Below, one piece after another: positions 1-4,919 of a stretch of 6,709 nt of DNA. Below the pieces are notes generated by a model. It was not told the origin of the DNA, ran no database searches, and was given only the letters and a program-made list of their open reading frames with translations. The stretch is taken from positions 1 through 6,709 of the IMG/VR virus record IMGVR_UViG_2802429221_000016; one strand, 5' to 3'. Position 1 is the first letter of the stretch. Every line of letters begins with the position of its first letter. A program made the translations under genes and the position numbers. This stretch comes from a virus. Taxonomy: Duplodnaviria > Heunggongvirae > Uroviricota > Caudoviricetes.

Positions 1-996
1 TTAACCCACTAGCCAGATCAACATCACAATGATGACGACGAATAATATCCACAGGCTGGGGCGCATTGACATTTCTTTCATCGTGTCAATTAATGGGGTA
101 AATGGATTGAGCAGCGGTTGAATATCACGCGGTTCAATGCCTTTCACCCGCCGCTGATAGAGCTGGTTAAGGATATCTTCGGCCTGTGCAGACGTCAGGG
201 CTGATTGTGTTGAAAGCCCATACTTTTGCTCAACATACGTCGATAATACCGTCAACTCGCTTGCATCCAGTGGCTGCTTTAGCGCCATCTGGAGTGACTC
301 CAGCGTCGGAGTGTGTTGCTGACTTAACGCCTGACGGGCCTGTAACCAGGTGACCAGATGGTTAAACAGTTTCGCCGGAATCAACTCGCCATCTTTCACC
401 CCTGAAAGTTCCAGCATCGATTGCCAAATCTGTTTGCTGGGTTCCCCTGTTGCCGCCGCGAGTTTGGTGACCAGTTGCTTGAGCGTATTGTGTTCCGCTG
501 GTAATAAAGGTCGGTCGGTCGCCTGGCGCTGTTGCGGCTGCGGGATAACCATCTTCCCTTCCTGTAGTAGCGTCAGGACGGTTTTTAATTGCTCTGGTGA
601 GAGTTGATTTAGCGGCGTCTGACCAAAGTTATGCCGGATATAATCCGTGACGGCCTGACGATTATTCCCCAGACGTAAATACTCCCCCAATTGGGCCAAA
701 AGTTGGCGGACAGAATAACTTTTTTGCGCAGACAGCAAACGTTGCGCAAGGTTTTGTTCTGCTGCCGGGAAATGGCGTGAAAGCAAAGGTGAATCACCCG
801 GCAGACCGATGTCGTGCTTTATATTGGCCCACAACTCTGCGCTCTGCTGTTGCGTCAGCGAAGTCACTTTGATCATCAAACTTTCCAACGCGGTACGTTG
901 CAAGCTGGATAAAGGCTGATTGCCTGCGCCAGACGACAGGTTATCCCCCTGACCTGGTGGTTGCGCAGGAGGAGGGCCTGAAAGAGGTTGTATCAT
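1..996 (-). CDS. flk: Flk-like tail-anchored inner-membrane protein (flagellar regulator Flk), complete
   Basis: 331-aa ORF. ATG at 996..994 with AAGGA Shine-Dalgarno 7 nt upstream (plus coords 1004-1008, read on minus strand). Pro/Gln-rich N-terminus MIQPLSGPPPAQPPGQGDNL and a single hydrophobic anchor SLWILFVVIIVMLIWLVG directly before the stop. Length, C-terminal anchor and position next to pdxB match enterobacterial Flk as I remember it; not verified by search. Confidence 0.7.
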   Translation of the reverse strand: MIQPLSGPPPAQPPGQGDNLSSGAGNQPLSSLQRTALESLMIKVTSLTQQQSAELWANIKHDIGLPGDSPLLSRHFPAAEQNLAQRLLSAQKSYSVRQLLAQLGEYLRLGNNRQAVTDYIRHNFGQTPLNQLSPEQLKTVLTLLQEGKMVIPQPQQRQATDRPLLPAEHNTLKQLVTKLAAATGEPSKQIWQSMLELSGVKDGELIPAKLFNHLVTWLQARQALSQQHTPTLESLQMALKQPLDASELTVLSTYVEQKYGLSTQSALTSAQAEDILNQLYQRRVKGIEPRDIQPLLNPFTPLIDTMKEMSMRPSLWILFVVIIVMLIWLVG

Positions 997-1316: not shown

Positions 1317-2057
1317 ATGCTTCATTGGGTTTGTACAAAATGTCAGTCTAAAAATTCTACGAAGGAATCAGTGTGTCCTGCGTGTGGAACTTCTTTTTGG
1401 TCGACGCAGAAAAAAGAAAGGAGAGGGTGTTTATTGTTGGTTGTAATGTTCTTCGTTGTGTTTTGGGTTATTGGGCAATTATCCGGAAACGAATCCGATT
1501 CACAGGTAAATAATATTCCATCGAAAGATCATATTAGCGATGAACTTGCTTTATCTGGAGTAGACAAGGCGAAACCGTATTCTTTTGTGCGTTATGATGA
1601 CATAAGTTATGCGGGACGAAAGAGATTTAAGGTTTTTATAGTGTCGCCTGAGTCTCAAGATTTAGAATCAAGAGCTTCGACAGCAATGGCCGCGGCTATT
1701 GAGTGGCAGAAAGAGAAGAGAGCTGACTTTGTATCTGTGTTGCTTCTACCTACAGAAAATTCTGAAGGTAGTTATCGGTTGGCAATGGTTGATTATTCTC
1801 CGGATGGTTGCGGAACTGGTGCTGTATGTGATAATAAAAAATGGACTATATTGTCTAGTGACGTAATATTAACGAAATCGCAACTTCAATCTATATCCTT
1901 GTGGAATGAGTATAAGAAAAAGTTTGCGGGTAATGATGGAATTTTGGATTTAAAGGAAGAAAAGAAATTGAAGCAGTTTATTAGTAAACAGCTAAATATT
2001 CCTGTTAAGGATGTATTTGCTCCAGATATTTTTCCTTTAAAGAAAATCGAAGATTAA
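1317..2057 (+). CDS. Moron-like membrane protein: N-terminal Cys4 zinc ribbon, one TM helix, about 190-aa C-terminal domain; function unknown
   Basis: 246-aa ORF with GGAG (1305-1308) 8 nt before the ATG. CxxC-x10-CxxC (C6, C9, C20, C23), basic stretch QKKERRG, hydrophobic segment CLLLVVMFFVVFWVIGQL (about residues 38-55), then a hydrophilic domain containing a CGTGAVC cysteine pair. Positive-inside rule suggests N-in/C-out. Visibly AT-rich relative to flanks (by eye, not computed). Followed by a terminator. I do not recognise the C-terminal domain. Confidence 0.8.
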   Translation: MLHWVCTKCQSKNSTKESVCPACGTSFWSTQKKERRGCLLLVVMFFVVFWVIGQLSGNESDSQVNNIPSKDHISDELALSGVDKAKPYSFVRYDDISYAGRKRFKVFIVSPESQDLESRASTAMAAAIEWQKEKRADFVSVLLLPTENSEGSYRLAMVDYSPDGCGTGAVCDNKKWTILSSDVILTKSQLQSISLWNEYKKKFAGNDGILDLKEEKKLKQFISKQLNIPVKDVFAPDIFPLKKIED

Positions 2058-2128
2058 CAAAATAAATAGACGAGACTGAATTAGTATTATTGTAATCTTT
2101 AACTGGTACCCTCACTTGTGAGGGCACC

Positions 2129-2172
2129 AAAAAGAAAACCCGCAGTTTTTACGCTGCGGGTTTCTGCTTTGG
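2129..2172. terminator. Bidirectional intrinsic terminator between the convergent moron and hok transcripts
   Basis: Hairpin CCCGCAG (2139-2145) / CTGCGGG (2154-2160) with an 8-nt loop. Plus strand: followed by TTTCTGCTTT (2161-2170). Minus strand: followed by UUUUCUUUUU (complement of 2129-2138). A second imperfect hairpin (2105-2128, CCCTCA...TGAGGG) sits immediately next to it. Confidence 0.6.
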
Positions 2173-2216
2173 GATGTGTATAGGGTGCCTTATCGACCTT
2201 ACCCTGGCAACCGATT

Positions 2217-2251
2217 GACGGGGAAGTTGCCTTCCCCGTCGCGGTTTTCTT
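2217..2251. other. Perfect 10-bp palindromic hairpin abutting the hok stop codon
   Basis: GACGGGGAAG (2217-2226), loop TTGC, CTTCCCCGTC (2231-2240), then GCGG + TTTTCTT on the plus strand. It could be a second plus-strand terminator, or, read on the minus strand, a structured element in the hok 3' UTR. Confidence 0.4.
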
Positions 2252-2393
2252 ACTGTCTACACTGTAAGAACGCCGCAAACTCCGCTCCCCAGAAGCTCAT
2301 CCGTATCTCGCAGAGCGAACCCTGCAACATCCAGATGATGAGGATTGCCGTCACGCACAGTGTGGTGATGGCGATTAGCGATTTTTGCGACAT
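2250..2393 (-). CDS. hok: Hok/Gef-family type I toxin (small membrane-depolarising peptide), 47 aa
   Basis: Not in the ORF track (below its length cut-off). Minus-strand ATG at 2393..2391 with AGGAG 8 nt upstream; stop TAA at 2252..2250. Translation: MSQKSLIAITTLCVTAILIIWMLQGSLCEIRMSFWGAEFAAFLQCRQ. It shares the family layout (N-terminal TM helix, then W-M-x-x-x-S-L-C-E-I/L, then E-x-A-A-F-L-x-C) with E. coli HokA (...FTWMIRDSLCELHIKQESYELAAFLACKLKE) and R1 Hok (...[25 protein letters not shown]), both quoted from memory. Confidence 0.8.
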   Translation of the reverse strand: MSQKSLIAITTLCVTAILIIWMLQGSLCEIRMSFWGAEFAAFLQCRQ

Positions 2394-2496
2394 AGCGCTT
2401 GCTCCTTTTTCGGGGAGGCGCTAACCTACGACTTGCGAAGGTTGTATGGCTAGGGCCTCGGGTTAACGTTAAAGTTGACTCGGGGCCTTTCCACAT
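2257..2496 (-). CDS. mok: mok-like overlapping reading frame (modulator of hok translation)
   Basis: 79-codon ORF in a different frame that begins upstream of hok and overlaps nearly all of it, ending 7 nt from the hok stop. ATG at 2496 with GAAGG upstream. The protein is low-complexity and basic, as expected for a frame that exists for translational coupling rather than for its product. The true start could be internal. Confidence 0.4.
   Translation of the reverse strand: MWKGPESTLTLTRGPSHTTFASRRLAPPRKRSKRYVAKIANRHHHTVRDGNPHHLDVAGFALRDTDELLGSGVCGVLTV
2454..2487 (+). other. Strand-specific RNA hairpin (14 bp with three G-U pairs) antisense to the mok 5' region
   Basis: GGCCTCGGGTTAAC (2454-2467) pairs with GTTGACTCGGGGCC (2474-2487) around loop GTTAAA. 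All three non-Watson-Crick positions are G-U/U-G on the plus-strand RNA and would be C-A mismatches on the minus-strand RNA. Candidate part of a Sok-like antisense RNA; only TTT follows, so it is not a convincing terminator on its own. Confidence 0.3.
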
Positions 2497-2546
2497 TCGG
2501 CCTTCGGGTTTACCCTCCAGCCATCAGCCGAAAGGCACCCGCGCGA

Positions 2547-2576
2547 ATTCTAGCCTGGTTTTTTCCCTTGTTTCAA
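2547..2576 (-). promoter_or_regulatory. Candidate sigma70 promoter for the hok/mok mRNA
   Basis: On the minus strand: TTGAAA (plus coords 2576..2571), 18-bp spacer, TAGAAT (2552..2547); predicted start about 2540, giving a transcript of about 410 nt to the terminator at about 2130. Hexamer match only. Confidence 0.3.
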
Positions 2577-2580
2577 TCCG

Positions 2581-2610
2581 TTGAGACTTATCAGCCTTCT
2601 GATGTAAAAT
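2581..2610 (+). promoter_or_regulatory. Near-consensus sigma70 promoter of the candidate sRNA
   Basis: TTGAGA (2581-2586), 18-bp spacer, TAAAAT (2605-2610). It is back-to-back with the candidate hok promoter; the two -35 elements are 4 bp apart. Confidence 0.45.
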
Positions 2611-2616
2611 TCCCGA

Positions 2617-2681
2617 CCGCAGACATTATTCAGTCACGCATTTGATACATGCTTCCGCCGGCGTTCGCGCCGGTTTTTTTT
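2617..2681 (+). ncRNA. Candidate small RNA, about 65 nt, from promoter to intrinsic terminator
   Basis: Predicted start about 2616-2619, 7-9 nt after the -10. The 3' end is a hairpin CCGGCG (2658-2663), loop TTCG, CGCCGG (2668-2673) followed by eight T (2674-2681). No plausible ORF inside (the only ATG frame runs through the terminator). Sok-like antitoxin RNAs are about this size, but this unit overlaps the hok mRNA only if that mRNA starts to the right of 2681; identity unresolved. Confidence 0.4.
2656..2681 (+). terminator. Textbook Rho-independent terminator (GC stem, UUCG tetraloop, U8)
   Basis: Read directly: perfect 6-bp GC stem, extendable by one G-U pair, UUCG loop, eight consecutive T. 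Plus-strand specific (no U-run on the other side). Confidence 0.7.
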
Positions 2682-2915
2682 CGTCCTGTTGCTGCATAGA
2701 TCGTCATGCGCGATCGAGGCGCGGTATTGATCCTTTTTCAGTTTAATTTTGACTCTCAATTTTACGCATGCCGCGCCGCGTCTGGCTTCGTTGTTTGACG
2801 ATTTTTTGATGCGATCCTTTCGTGATCGTTTCCCGTCTCGCGTAAAATGCAAAAACTCTTTTAATATCATGCGGTTTTATTGCCCCTGCCATTTATGCGA
2901 TCGTAAAAACCACTC

Positions 2916-3020
2916 TGAAAACTGAAAAAAATTTCAAAGCGTGAAATTTCAGATCTTCGCTTTTCCCTCAGTTGCTGCGCGGGCTGGCGGTCATTTTTGC
3001 ACGGCAGAAAACTGAAAAAC
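2916..3020. repeat. A-tract repeat cluster: two copies of GAAAACTGAAAAA plus TGAAA/TTTCA palindromes
   Basis: GAAAACTGAAAAA at 2917-2929 and again at 3007-3019 (13/13). TGAAA-aaaa-TTTCA at 2923-2936 and the perfect 10-bp palindrome TGAAATTTCA at 2942-2951. Non-coding; candidate regulator or nucleoid-protein binding sites. Confidence 0.5.
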
Positions 3021-3033
3021 TGTTTCGACACAA

Positions 3034-3100
3034 AACCCGCGGGTTGGAGGGGGTAGCGCGGTTTACGTCACCTCACGCTTTACGTCACACCGTTTACGTG
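3034..3100. repeat. 12-bp perfect palindrome followed by three direct repeats of TTTACGT(C/G)
   Basis: AACCCGCGGGTT (3034-3045) is self-complementary. TTTACGTCA at 3062-3070 and 3079-3087, and TTTACGTG at 3093-3100, spaced 17 and 14 bp. Lies just downstream of the terminator-like hairpin that follows the 565-aa gene. Candidate operator / iteron / arm-type protein-binding array. Confidence 0.5.
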
Positions 3101-3149
3101 GTGTGCGCATACAGCGCCGGAATGGCACGCAGAACGCATTAATCATGTG

Positions 3150-3184
3150 GCAGATATGAAAACGCACGACCGGAGCCGTGCGTT
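3150..3184 (-). terminator. Candidate intrinsic terminator of the minus-strand structural operon
   Basis: AACGCACG (3161-3168) pairs with CGTGCGTT (3177-3184) around an 8-nt loop, about 40 nt after the stop at 3222-3224. On the minus-strand RNA it is followed by UUUUCAUAUCU. Confidence 0.4.
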
Positions 3185-3221
3185 GCGTGATGGGCGTTTA
3201 TGGGGGTTTTATGCCCGGTGA

Positions 3222-4919
3222 TCAGGCGATAAGGTCACCGTATTTTTCGCGCAGGCTCGTAGCCTGTTTGGCGTCTGCGGCAAGTTCGCTGCTGTTTGTT
3301 GGTGCGCCGGTGTTGCTGTGGGTGTGGTTTGCAGTGTGTGTGGCCAGCAACTGAACCAGATCCAGAATATCAATCAACAACGTCAGCAGATTAAGTCCGG
3401 ATTTTTCCCGTGAGCCACCGCGACCAATAAATACTGTCGGGGCTGTAAACTCCAGACCGCCGTCCGCCCGGCATGTTCTGCGGCCTCCCACGTTTTCAGT
3501 AAGGTCGCGCTCAATCGTGGATGTCGCCCCTTTGAGTTTAGTCAGCAAATCCTGCGCTACCATCTGGATATGCTCACCGGCTGCGATCGCATAATGACCA
3601 GTAGTAATGTGTTCTGTCTGGCCTGTCATCAGCTTGCTGGTTCCCAGAACGCTGGTTATGTCGTTTGCCTGTACTGTTGTTGTTCTGGTTGTTGTTGTGC
3701 GTTCTTCCTGATCGCTGTTAATGGTTCGCCTGGCTGAATGCTCCCTGATTTGCTGATCGGTTTCTCTGTGCCAGCTTCCGTCAGTCGTGACGCGCTGAAA
3801 CACTTCTGCGCGCTGTTGCTGCAGCTGTTCGCCGGGCTTTACATCAGGCAGGTTATGGCCAGCGGGTAAGATTTGCCTGATGACAGGTTTATCCGGTCGT
3901 CCTTCAATGTTGGATATTTCCACGATGGTGCCAGCCGGCGGGTAGGCAAAACATCCCGCCTCACTGCCAGCCATGGGGACGGGGAGCGGTACTGCCGGGT
4001 AAACGGGCGTATCGCTTTTATCGTTGCCGTTCTCATCAAGCAACTGCACATCGACGGCGTAGCGTGGGCGGAAACTGTCGGCCACATCGCCCAGGGTGGC
4101 GGGCTCCGTTGGTGCAATGACGCGCGCCAGCCGGGTATGTAGCGTACCGCTGGCCAGTTCCGGGAACTGTGTTTCCATTTGTCTGCGTAATGGTGATTTG
4201 GAAACAGGGCTGCCCGTGGCGGTAAGGCGCTCCCATGTCAGGGTCATTTTCTCGTTGTTGAGGGCTACACGGGTAATGCGCCCGGCCGGAAGGTTCACGC
4301 CCGGTCGCACAGTTTCCATAAACATGATGTCGATGCTGTTTCCGCCGCTTTGCCCGAGTGTGTACTGTTGCGGAATATCCGGCATTGTAATACTGGCAAA
4401 TCGTGAATCAGCTGCGCTTCCCACAAATACAGAACCGTCCGGCATTGGATGCCAGACGTAATCGCTGATACTGAATGCTCGCCCCAGTTGGCTGAGCAGT
4501 TGTGCTCCGCTGCCGCTGTGGGTGATGTAGGGAGTTGGTATGCTGACGTAATCCGCATCTGGCGTGGTGAAAACGATGCCGCTTTGTTTGCCCAGATTAT
4601 CGAGTACCCCCCGCAACGTCGGGTGTTGCATGGAGCAAGGGAAATCAAAATCCAGCACAGCAGCTGCTTCACGGATAAAAAGGCGACGTGAGCCATTTTC
4701 AGCAGGTTGATCGCGCTCAATGTAGCCGGAGAAATAGCGCCATGCTTCACCGTCACGGCCGAGATCAATTTGTACCATTGCGCCGGCAAGGCTGTGTTCG
4801 GGTGACAGATTGTTAACAGAAATGAAGCCACGACCGGCAGCATTCAGGGTAAGAACAAGGTTTATATCGGCAATTTCCACCCGTTCGCCATTAATCATGC
4901 AGCGTTGTATCAATTTCAT
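3222..4919 (-). CDS. Phage baseplate hub/central spike protein (fused gp27-like N-terminal region + gp5/gpV-like OB-fold and needle), 565 aa
   Basis: Strong SD GAGGAAGGG upstream; start overlaps the upstream stop (ATGA at 4916-4919). The segment PPAGTIVEISNIEGRPDKPVIRQIL fits the OB-fold signature of phage gp5/gpV and T6SS VgrG (typical VgrG form P-R-I-G-Q-E-V-V-V-D-F-L-E-G-D-P-D-Q-P-I-I, from memory). It is followed by Thr-rich beta-strand-like repeats (TTTTRTTTV, HITTGHYAIAAGEHI) and a His-rich apex THTANHTHSNTG resembling the metal-binding tip of P2 gpV-type spikes. The N-terminal 320 aa is unassigned and the hub call is inference. Confidence 0.55.
   Translation of the reverse strand: MKLIQRCMINGERVEIADINLVLTLNAAGRGFISVNNLSPEHSLAGAMVQIDLGRDGEAWRYFSGYIERDQPAENGSRRLFIREAAAVLDFDFPCSMQHPTLRGVLDNLGKQSGIVFTTPDADYVSIPTPYITHSGSGAQLLSQLGRAFSISDYVWHPMPDGSVFVGSAADSRFASITMPDIPQQYTLGQSGGNSIDIMFMETVRPGVNLPAGRITRVALNNEKMTLTWERLTATGSPVSKSPLRRQMETQFPELASGTLHTRLARVIAPTEPATLGDVADSFRPRYAVDVQLLDENGNDKSDTPVYPAVPLPVPMAGSEAGCFAYPPAGTIVEISNIEGRPDKPVIRQILPAGHNLPDVKPGEQLQQQRAEVFQRVTTDGSWHRETDQQIREHSARRTINSDQEERTTTTRTTTVQANDITSVLGTSKLMTGQTEHITTGHYAIAAGEHIQMVAQDLLTKLKGATSTIERDLTENVGGRRTCRADGGLEFTAPTVFIGRGGSREKSGLNLLTLLIDILDLVQLLATHTANHTHSNTGAPTNSSELAADAKQATSLREKYGDLIA

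Follow-up and report, generated by a model that had tools for sequence, protein, structure and literature searches.

The window, i.e., the whole 6,709-nt stretch of DNA analyzed here, comes from a virus of the Caudoviricetes and carries, where a P2-like prophage ends, a hok/sok cassette. The toxin gene, its leader and its promoter are read from the minus strand, and the predicted antitoxin RNA, Sok, from the plus strand. A preliminary description of this DNA named three plus-strand candidates for the antitoxin RNA, referred to below as (a), (b), and (c). The elements on which it drew (the T6 run, the hairpin, the promoter and terminator of (c), the minus-strand promoter and the ATG at 2496) are all present where it placed them. 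The features of the region are as follows:

2128-2540, minus strand: predicted hok mRNA, 5′ end at G2540, 3′ end placed past the terminator at 2164-2135
2135-2164, minus strand: intrinsic terminator past the hok fbi element (terminator scan)
2183-2198, minus strand: fbi-like 3′ element, GGUCGAUAAGGCACCC, partner of 2540-2526
2250-2393, minus strand: hok coding sequence, 47 aa (PF01848, HOK_GEF)
2257-2496, minus strand: leader open reading frame (ORF) in the role of mok, 79 codons, in the +1 frame relative to hok and overlapping it (ORF list)
2399-2427, plus strand: predicted Sok promoter, TTGCTC (2399-2404), N17, TAACCT (2422-2427) (layout and sokW alignment)
2434-2497, plus strand: predicted Sok RNA, about 63 nt (alignment to annotated sokC and sokW)
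2452-2489, plus strand: predicted Sok stem-loop, candidate (b), 16 bp with four G-U pairs and loop GUUAAA (RNAfold)
2526-2540, minus strand: tac-like 5′ element, GGGUGCCUUUCGGCU, pairing with 2198-2183 in the minimum-free-energy fold
2547-2576, minus strand: hok promoter, TTGAAA (2576-2571), N18, TAGAAT (2552-2547) (consensus scan, 10/12)
2581-2610, plus strand: promoter-like site of candidate (c), TTGAGA-N18-TAAAAT (scan, 10/12)
2616-2682, plus strand: putative transcript of (c), about 65 nt if the promoter fires
2657-2681, plus strand: intrinsic terminator of (c), GCCGGCG-TTCG-CGCCGGT followed by T8 (terminator scan)

The earlier assignment of the locus to hok is borne out by homology to hok/sok cassettes and by a match of the product to Pfam PF01848 (HOK_GEF; 29.3 bits, cut-off 22). 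In E. coli genome annotation the product of 2250-2393 is a Hok/Gef family protein. Phage records call this Hok "MokW-like," but the Hok here is a different paralogue. Related loci were sought with the mok-frame translation as the query. The cassette is present in 1753 of 5426 E. coli genomes. Similarity to the cassettes of other phages breaks off at 2552-2568, the cassette edge, and similarity to Stx-phage cassettes runs out at 2180-2183. Stx phages have a closer copy of the cassette, about 83% identical, at a second site. Homology, promoter layout, fold and distribution are established for the cassette.

The hok promoter is the TTGAAA-N18-TAGAAT pair, as had been proposed conditionally. In 68 of 69 distinct related cassettes, a pair of the form TTGnnn-N17/18-TA(G/A)A(A/T)T ends exactly 6 nt before GGGTGCC, and the hexamer geometry is kept across at least five unrelated upstream sequence contexts. 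Homology between cassettes of differing contexts starts at GGGTGCC, that is, exactly at 2540. Position 1 of the Rfam sok model (RF01794) also aligns to 2540; in K-12 this model extends over the whole hokC leader, from the 5′ end as far as the AUG of hok. The pairing of the tac-like element (2540-2526) with the fbi-like element (2198-2183) is present in the minimum-free-energy fold of the 358-nt RNA, and both partners are conserved in relatives. The model position, the promoter, the start of homology and the tac-fbi pairing together place the predicted 5′ end of the hok mRNA at 2540. A terminator corresponding to 2135-2164 likewise lies downstream of hok in ECL27977.

These observations bear on an unusual layout that had been contemplated, with the start of the hok mRNA rightward of 2681 and candidate (c) as a cis-antisense Sok. 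The scan gave no minus-strand terminator for the stretch from the tail operon to hok, so read-through could overlap (c). The layout is nevertheless opposed by the four lines of evidence that agree on 2540, by the lack of similarity of (c) to any Sok, and by the absence of (c) from more than 97% of cassette-carrying genomes; we regard it as exceedingly improbable. What is found is the usual hok/sok arrangement, and since the hok promoter lies at 2547-2576, (c) is divergent from hok and is not Sok, as had been surmised.

The covariance scan for Sok families that had been suggested did reach the locus, with a match of RF01794 (model positions 1-157) to 2540-2380 on the minus strand (E = 2.4e-6), but the score of 35.8 bits is below the gathering score of 59. 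No Rfam family matched the window at gathering thresholds; at E up to 10, the sub-threshold sok match was accompanied by chance-level matches only. The strand of the match has a simple explanation. On K-12 hokC, RF01794 matches 654-502 on the minus strand at 118 bits, and the annotated sokC is at 553-611 on the plus strand. Because model and gene lie on opposite strands, RF01794 is a model of the hok leader, whose middle part is complementary to Sok. A match to the "sok" model therefore flags the leader on the hok-mRNA strand, not the strand of the antitoxin gene.

The annotated sokC (NC_000913.3, 16952-17010) and sokW (AF125520.1, 58664-58734) served as references for the antitoxin. Both alignments put the stem-loop on 2452-2489 and the -10 hexamer on TAACCT at 2422-2427. 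Homology to these two genes, with a promoter at the right distance, identifies candidate (b) as the predicted Sok; the three candidates, previously held to be inseparable from sequence, are thereby separated. The promoter layout is identical in 64 of the 69 distinct cassettes and aligns with TTGCCT-N17-TAACCT of sokW in 933W and Sp5. It agrees with the sigma-70 consensus at only six of 12 positions, which is why it is absent from the output of the consensus scan. Mutation of the sokW promoter abolished antitoxin activity, and the substituted bases, as read here from primers YO-421 and YO-597, fall in the -10 region of TTGCCT-N17-TAACC (PMC8621323). The annotated start of sokW in 933W is the seventh nucleotide past the -10, equivalent to 2434/2435 here. 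The predicted Sok would thus start at 2434/2435 and end at about 2493-2497, each end being uncertain by a few nucleotides, and would consist of a single-stranded 5′ tail (2434-2451), the hairpin (2452-2489) and a 3′ tail, CUUUCCACAU.

The hairpin was originally described as 14 bp at 2454-2487 and specific to the plus strand. The strand specificity stands, and RNAfold lengthens the stem, pairing 2452-2467 with 2474-2489 to give 16 bp. The folding energy is -30.1 kcal/mol on the plus strand (z = -5.06) and -17.2 kcal/mol on the minus strand (z = -2.51), and by these z values the hairpin is strand specific and beyond chance. The hairpin folds with one architecture in all variants, and its stability on the Sok (plus) strand exceeds that on the other strand by 5-14 kcal/mol. 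The upper stems were not brought into register by MAFFT alignment, and folds of each variant together with an arm-swap test were used instead. Native pairs of arms averaged -20.4 kcal/mol in this test, compared to -16.8 kcal/mol for chimeric pairs. Formal covariation in the lower stem is weak, with one double change that does not exceed shuffles, there being too little variation.

The ATG at 2496 had been taken as the start of mok. It opens the leader ORF, is preceded by an SD-like GAAGG at 2508-2504 and is invariant in relatives. The reading frame that follows the AUG varies from 1 to 79 codons; it is intact in only 39 of the 69 relatives, from AUG+45 or GUG+47. In many relatives the ORF has 1-24 codons. 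Since no leader ORF extends to hok in 27 of the 69 related cassettes, the translational coupling step is uncertain for this subfamily. As judged by alignment, the mokC/mokW start codon has its counterpart not in the ATG at 2496 but in an AUA at 2447-2445, replaced by AUC or other codons in relatives, and the ATG is not a canonical mok start. Candidate (a) had been proposed from the sokC/mokC geometry, anchored on this ATG. When the K-12 geometry is measured from 2496, Sok is set about 50 nt too far to the right, the ATG being non-homologous. The apparent puzzle of where Sok lies can be traced to this anchoring.

Candidate (a), 2488-2564 on the plus strand, is the complement of hok leader positions +1 to +53 plus the promoter spacer, and was rejected as an RNA unit. 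It had been noted to have no good promoter or terminator stem, and this is upheld: the scan made no promoter or terminator call for it, and 2488-2566 has no significant structure (z = -0.45). Its T6 (2559-2564) is the A-run in the spacer of the hok promoter, and the predicted start of hok transcription is downstream of it.

As a U-tract, the 3′ tail of the predicted Sok (CUUUCC) is poor and may let transcription read through. This raises the question of a longer Sok, running from the Sok promoter through the hairpin to T6 (~2564) or to the terminator of (c) (~2681). Such an RNA would span the entire hok 5′ leader, including the GAAGG of AUG 2496, which the short Sok misses. In contrast, the annotated sokC (59 nt) and sokW (71 nt) both stop about 10 nt past the homologous hairpin. 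An end at T6 would have no preceding stem, and T6, being part of the hok promoter spacer, is replaced by other sequence in other contexts. We consider a longer Sok improbable.

Overall, region 2128-2576 is very probably an ordinary hok/sok type I toxin-antitoxin cassette with Sok built on the 2452-2489 hairpin. The transcript ends, expression and mechanism of hok and Sok are deduced from the sequence. The hok mRNA would be made from the 2576-2547 promoter, and its tac-like 5′ end can close on the fbi-like 2198-2183. Sok would be made from the 2399-2427 promoter and would be antisense to the hok leader from about +44 to +107. By analogy to R1, sokC and sokW, its single-stranded 5′ tail would pair with the leader. 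The duplex would span the first ~20 codons of the leader ORF, up to AUG 2496. Again by analogy to these systems, it would block the translation to which hok is coupled and make a substrate for RNase III. Annotation of the locus as a standard hok/sok cassette, with Sok placed at about 2434-2497, can be made with confidence; the value of the result is mainly one of clean-up.

Candidate (c) is placed by the sequence comparisons outside the cassette, divergent from hok, at the junction of the cassette with the P2-like backbone. Its promoter-like site is back to back with the hok -35, with 4 bp between them. In the main lineage the hexamers are TTGAGA, TTGAGG or TTGGGG with TAAAAT or TAGAAT. The putative transcript would have a weakly structured 5′ part of ~40 nt followed by the terminator hairpin (-17.1 kcal/mol, z = -1.96), the latter at 2657-2674 with the T8 run at 2674-2681. 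As a small ORF (c) was rejected: its sole ATG (2650) lacks an SD, and the frame that it opens runs on through the terminator. Relatives carry com and a methyltransferase, and three GATC sites lie just to the right of (c). A reading of (c) as a Dam-regulated promoter region of the Mu mom type was also rejected; com is directly preceded by a 3x GATCGAT cluster of its own.

The distribution of (c) is narrow. It is present in 41 of the 5426 E. coli genomes and, among 185,579 species genomes, in one further species, E. albertii. All matches in metagenome and viral data are to the same prophage with hok adjoining, and no homologues of (c) or the spacer were found in phages and plasmids. (c) is always in one P2-like prophage lineage; carriers of this prophage include E. 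coli STEC316, E. coli A36 and E. albertii NBRC 107761. Backbone relatives without hok also lack the (c) segment, which fits equally the two readings of (c) discussed below.

(c) may be an sRNA of ~65 nt or a terminator that shields the tail operon, and the two readings may both hold. The first reading, in which (c) is a genuine independent sRNA acting in trans on host or phage mRNAs, an sRNA "moron" of the prophage lineage, is compatible with Sok being built on the 2452-2489 hairpin. A strong terminator with a U8 tail follows the 10/12 promoter at a distance of 46 nt. A scan of both strands of 341 kb of related DNA yielded no second promoter (10/12 or better) with a terminator within 150 nt; chance would give about 0.4 such pairs over the scan and about 0.015 per window-sized stretch. 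Where the -10 has changed from TAAAAT to TAGAAT, as in one copy, it is still consensus-like. Two changes in the L096 terminator (G-C to G-U and G-U to A-U) preserve pairing on the plus strand. Hfq-binding sRNAs have an A/U-rich stretch ahead of the hairpin and a long U tail, and the putative RNA of (c) would have both. Set against this, an acceptable -10 is missing from the L005-type lineage (8 of the 41 E. coli genomes), even though its RNA body is identical and the terminator is kept. The RNA body is also conserved no better (0.85-0.98) than the non-coding flank (0.82-1.0). No Rfam family includes (c); a match to rseX is at chance level (19.8 bits, E = 9.5) and rests mainly on the terminator hairpin and U-tail. 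The sequence was not found in the indexed literature. None of 46 prophage translation start regions stands out as a target (best z -2.3, chance level), and the restriction to E. coli and E. albertii, in a single prophage type, is a further point against an sRNA. Complementarity to Sok or the hok leader gave duplex energies no better than shuffles (z ~ +1), and a duplex with the whole hok mRNA (p ~0.05) has implausible loops; a role for (c) in the hok/sok circuit is not detectable by complementarity. We consider an independent sRNA a real possibility that falls short of an even chance.

The second reading, to which we attach much the same credence, is that the functional part of (c) is the terminator alone and that the promoter-like hexamers are fortuitous or incidental. 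The terminator would halt Sok read-through or stray rightward transcription before it entered the tail operon in the antisense direction. All 24 distinct copies retain the terminator, but not all retain the -10. The weak U-tract of the Sok tail and the nature of the rightward neighbor, a convergent late tail operon with its 3′ end nearest, also fit this reading, as does the unidirectionality of the terminator, whose minus strand has no T-run. On the other hand, in other genomic contexts a Sok-strand terminator past the hok promoter is usually lacking, so a fail-safe stop is not a general requirement of the cassette. In addition, a given terminator has a <1% chance of having a 10/12 promoter in the 135 nt upstream of it. 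The fuller proposal, that (c) is an undescribed, ORF-less sRNA "moron" of ~65 nt in an E. coli/E. albertii P2-like lineage, encoded back to back with the hok promoter, is somewhat doubtful and is offered tentatively. If it is true, the -35 boxes 4 bp apart suggest that expression of the toxin and of the sRNA could be linked via a shared upstream region. (c) is a candidate sRNA that is cheap to test, and the P2-like prophage lineage occurs in some STEC and ETEC strains.

Among known sRNAs, (c) can be likened by description to the Pas sRNAs of pathogenic E. coli, which have been detected experimentally and are linked to Stx-type lambdoid phages (bioRxiv 10.64898/2026.05.13.724894). They are likewise short, prophage-borne and patchy among strains, with an intrinsic terminator and a U tail. 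(c), as a predicted RNA, differs in belonging to a P2-like prophage and in having no Rfam match.

The cassette itself has close counterparts. In hokC/mokC/sokC of K-12 (NC_000913.3, 16751-17010), the hok promoter, leader, Sok promoter, hairpin and hok have the same order and spacing as here. RF01794 covers both leaders end to end, with 35.8 bits here and 118 bits in K-12 hokC. The lower stem of sokC, GCCUCGGG/CUCGGGGC, is nearly identical to that of the predicted Sok, whereas the upper stem differs. The position of the mokC AUG is AUA here, and the Hok here is HokA-like (MSQKSL...), only distantly related to HokC (MKQHKAM...). K-12 hokA was set aside as a closer reference; its leader is interrupted by IS150.

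The hokW/mokW/sokW locus of 933W and Sp5 (AF125520.1, 58460-58734) is also prophage-borne, and the antitoxin function of sokW has been demonstrated experimentally (PMC8621323). The sokW promoter, TTGCCT-N17-TAACCT, compares with TTGCTC-N17-TAACCT here, and transcription starts at the seventh nucleotide past the -10 in sokW and, as predicted, here alike. HokW, unlike the Hok here, is HokC/D-like, and the sokW hairpin is longer (71 nt). The mokW AUG lies under the 5′ tail of Sok, whereas the sole upstream AUG here is at the 3′ end of the predicted Sok.

Toxicity of the Hok protein and its rescue by Sok are on record in the literature only for sokW and R1. In R1, Sok covers both the SD and the AUG of mok. 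The predicted Sok here, in contrast, adjoins AUG 2496 only, leaves the SD (2508-2504) uncovered, and covers the ORF just downstream of the AUG; the leader ORF, moreover, is not conserved in the subfamily. The hok/sok (parB) system of R1 is the template for the mechanism proposed for the cassette here, with its tac/fbi closure, 3′ processing, mok-coupled translation, Sok binding and RNase III cleavage (PMC9841398).

The Sok antitoxin RNA of this hok locus had been sought among three plus-strand candidates: (a) at 2488-2564, (b) the hairpin at 2454-2487 and (c) at 2581-2681. The elements named in the preliminary description (T6 run, hairpin, promoter pairs, terminator, ATG at 2496 and hok) are all present where it had put them. 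It held that the choice could not be made from sequence; alignment with sokC and sokW answers it, with Sok predicted to be the RNA that contains hairpin (b). The locus, for which an unusual layout had been considered, is by its sequence a standard hok/sok cassette.

Features of the hok/sok region and its flanks
1-996, minus strand: chromosomal flk, left part of the window
1317-2057, plus: DUF4875/zinc-ribbon gene, left part of the window
2164-2135, minus: intrinsic terminator downstream of hok (terminator call)
2250-2393, minus: hok coding sequence, 47 aa (Pfam HOK_GEF 29.3 bits, cut-off 22)
~2434-2497, plus: predicted Sok RNA: 18-nt unpaired 5' tail, then a 16-bp hairpin containing four G-U pairs (alignment, fold)
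2454-2487, plus: candidate (b) hairpin as first described (sequence)
G2540, minus: predicted hok mRNA 5' end (RF01794 model position 1; seven nt past the TAGAAT box)
2559-2564, plus: T6 run (sequence)
2576-2547, minus: hok promoter-like pair TTGAAA-N18-TAGAAT (consensus scan)
2581-2610, plus: candidate (c) promoter-like pair TTGAGA-N18-TAAAAT (consensus scan, 10/12)
2657-2674, plus: candidate (c) terminator, a 7-bp GC-rich hairpin followed by a T8 run (terminator call)
3222-4919, minus: 565-aa last protein of the tail operon, following an HP1 ORF34-type baseplate protein

When K-12 sokC and the sokW of Stx phage 933W (AF125520.1 58664-58734) are aligned to the window, both stem-loops fall on 2452-2489 and both -10 boxes on TAACCT at 2422-2427. 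The promoter reads TTGCTC-N17-TAACCT in the window versus TTGCCT-N17-TAACCT in 933W; the window's layout is identical in 64 of the 69 distinct related cassettes aligned (from the window, 80 viral-contig loci and 8 E. coli loci). Mutations in the sokW promoter ended protection against HokW, and sokW supplied in trans restored it (Takada et al., PMC8621323); a comparison of primers YO-421 and YO-597 (PMC8621323) locates the base substitutions in this -10. The annotated sokW start is the seventh base past the -10 (2434/2435 in the window), and sokC and sokW end ~10 nt beyond the hairpin (~2497), and Sok is therefore predicted to span ~2434-2497, some 63 nt. It folds at -30.1 kcal/mol (z = -5.06) on the plus strand versus -17.2 kcal/mol (z = -2.51) on the other. 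Within the cassette, sequence varies most in the hairpin region (pairwise identity 0.54-0.62 versus 0.8-0.96 elsewhere), and all its variants keep the same folded shape, with the Sok strand 5-14 kcal/mol more stable; swapping arms between variants costs a mean of 3.6 kcal/mol. Formal pair counting in the lower stem was not significant, because this stem scarcely varies. Alignment, promoter, fold and arm swaps together identify candidate (b) as the predicted body of Sok.

Conservation within the cassette is lowest in the hairpin and 5' tail (2438-2483), and genomes hold up to 9 places matching a 2150-2900 query. Such variability would be consistent with copies diversifying so as to avoid cross-talk with one another; PMC9841398 reports none between R1 Sok and the chromosomal copies.

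The hok mRNA was placed with RF01794 ('sok'), which matches from 2540 to 2380 on the minus strand over the full model length (E = 2.4e-6; 35.8 bits, under the gathering score of 59). This Sok-family scan, suggested in the preliminary description, located the hok leader and left Sok itself unmarked. On the K-12 hokC/mokC/sokC locus (L002) the model matches 654 to 502, minus strand, with 118 bits, and RefSeq sokC occupies 553-611 on the plus strand. Because model match and annotated sokC lie on opposite strands, RF01794 represents the hok leader over its whole length, 5' end to hok AUG, with Sok complementary to the middle portion. Under its name 'sok antitoxin', the model thus returns the wrong strand at ~2.5 times the Sok length (tested at 2380-2540 of the window and 502-654 of L002). 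Upstream of GGGTGCC the 69 cassettes stand in at least five unrelated contexts, despite which TTGnnn-N17/18-TA(G/A)A(A/T)T precedes it by exactly 6 nt in 68. Homology shared with cassettes of other phages runs from 2180/2183 up to 2552/2568.

Candidate (c), already suspected of being an independent element, is not Sok: all of it lies upstream of the predicted start of hok transcription, beyond the edge of the mobile cassette, and it is a neighbour rather than part of the hok/sok system. Of 5426 complete E. coli genomes, 1753 have matches to the cassette and 41 to (c); outside E. coli, (c) was found only in E. albertii among 185,579 species genomes, and the 22 other copies, from metagenomes and viruses, all stand beside hok in the same prophage. 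Only at (c), across 341 kb of related DNA, does a 10/12 promoter stand <=150 nt upstream of a strong terminator, a pairing that favours a real sRNA of ~65 nt. Against this, the divergent L005-type sub-lineage, found in 8 of the 41 genomes, has a -35, TTGACT, and an intact terminator, but no acceptable -10, and the promoter scan is empty there. It diverges across 2180-2618 and is near-identical from ~2620 onward, which puts the promoter half and the terminator half of (c) on different segments of the mosaic. For the putative RNA body, conservation does not exceed that of the non-coding flank. It matches no Rfam family and does not occur in indexed papers, and neither Sok nor the hok leader nor 46 prophage start regions are meaningfully complementary to it. 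Alternatively, (c) is a terminator that keeps plus-strand transcription leaving the cassette from entering the convergent tail operon in antisense. All 24 distinct copies retain the terminator, even as the L005-type -10 is lost, and two substitutions in one copy preserve plus-strand pairing; a fail-safe terminator is, however, not general for this cassette in other contexts. We therefore keep both overlapping readings at roughly equal weight; experiments on (c) would be inexpensive.

The promoter spacer of (c) contains a small inverted repeat (ATCAG-CCTT-CTGAT, 2590-2603); two variants have G for A in its 5' arm, which makes a G-U on the plus strand. The L005 locus has a different one, CAACA-CTC-TGTTG, in the same place (~1216-1230). 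Both could be chance.

The (c)-bearing prophage is P2-like (integrase, Cox, gpA-type replication endonuclease, Ogr, portal, terminase, P2-family capsid), with hok at its right end, past the tail genes. Homology with the serS-adjacent copy in STEC316 and with E. albertii starts at 2118-2150, which marks the prophage end; that end stands beside flk, serS or raiA, depending on the genome. At one end the 'Escherichia phage 500465-2' record (NC_049343.1 / CP025901.1) takes in host genes, namely mnmC, fabB, an MFS transporter and flk, so its boundary overshoots the prophage. Backbone relatives with other cargo (YafO-family toxin, nuclease) lose homology left of 2729. The 565-aa tail-operon protein, called a T6SS Vgr family protein in the annotation of one genome, lacks any Pfam domain. 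Between its gene and (c), a 540-nt non-coding spacer (2682-3221) is 82-100% conserved and holds 7 GATC sites versus 2.1 expected (P ~0.005), three of them within 34 bp (2699-2732); relatives carry a com and DNA-methyltransferase pair beyond hok, with its own 3x GATCGAT cluster. Three ~12-nt direct repeats in the spacer, C(A/G)C(G/C)(G/C)TTTACGT(CAC) at 3057-3099 (spacing 17 and 14 nt), could be a protein-binding array.

The ATG at 2496, at leader position +45, starts an ORF of 79 codons that overlaps hok, in the +1 frame relative to it. Where hokC and hokW have their canonical mok start, the window reads AUA (2447-2445) and then a stop; at this homologous position relatives have AUC or other codons. 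Candidate (a) had seemed plausible because the K-12/933W geometry was applied to ATG 2496, which is not the homologous codon. Segment 2488-2564 is complementary to hok leader nt 1-53 plus the promoter spacer, with no promoter call, no stem ahead of T6 and z = -0.45. AUG+45 and the GAAGG box (SD) are invariant in 69/69 cassettes, and the ORF behind the AUG spans 1-79 codons, the shortest being AUG-UAA or AUG-UGA. A long leader ORF starts at AUG+45 in 14 cassettes, at the overlapping GUG+47 in 25, whose hairpin is one base shorter, and elsewhere in 3; in 27 none reaches hok. The window is of the intact class. AUGUGG contains both an AUG and, in another frame, a GUG, and the long ORF changes frame when the hairpin length shifts by one base. 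Sok would cover codons 2 to ~21 of the leader ORF and not its SD, and we infer from this coverage that a block of its initiation is plausible. The Sok 5' tail covers the mok AUG in K-12 and 933W, whereas the window's only upstream AUG lies at the Sok 3' end. In the minimum-free-energy fold of the 358-nt hok RNA, the 5' 15 nt (2540-2526) pair with 2198-2183, the same arrangement as that of tac and fbi, the 5' and 3' elements of hok mRNA whose mechanism is known from plasmid R1 (PMC9841398).
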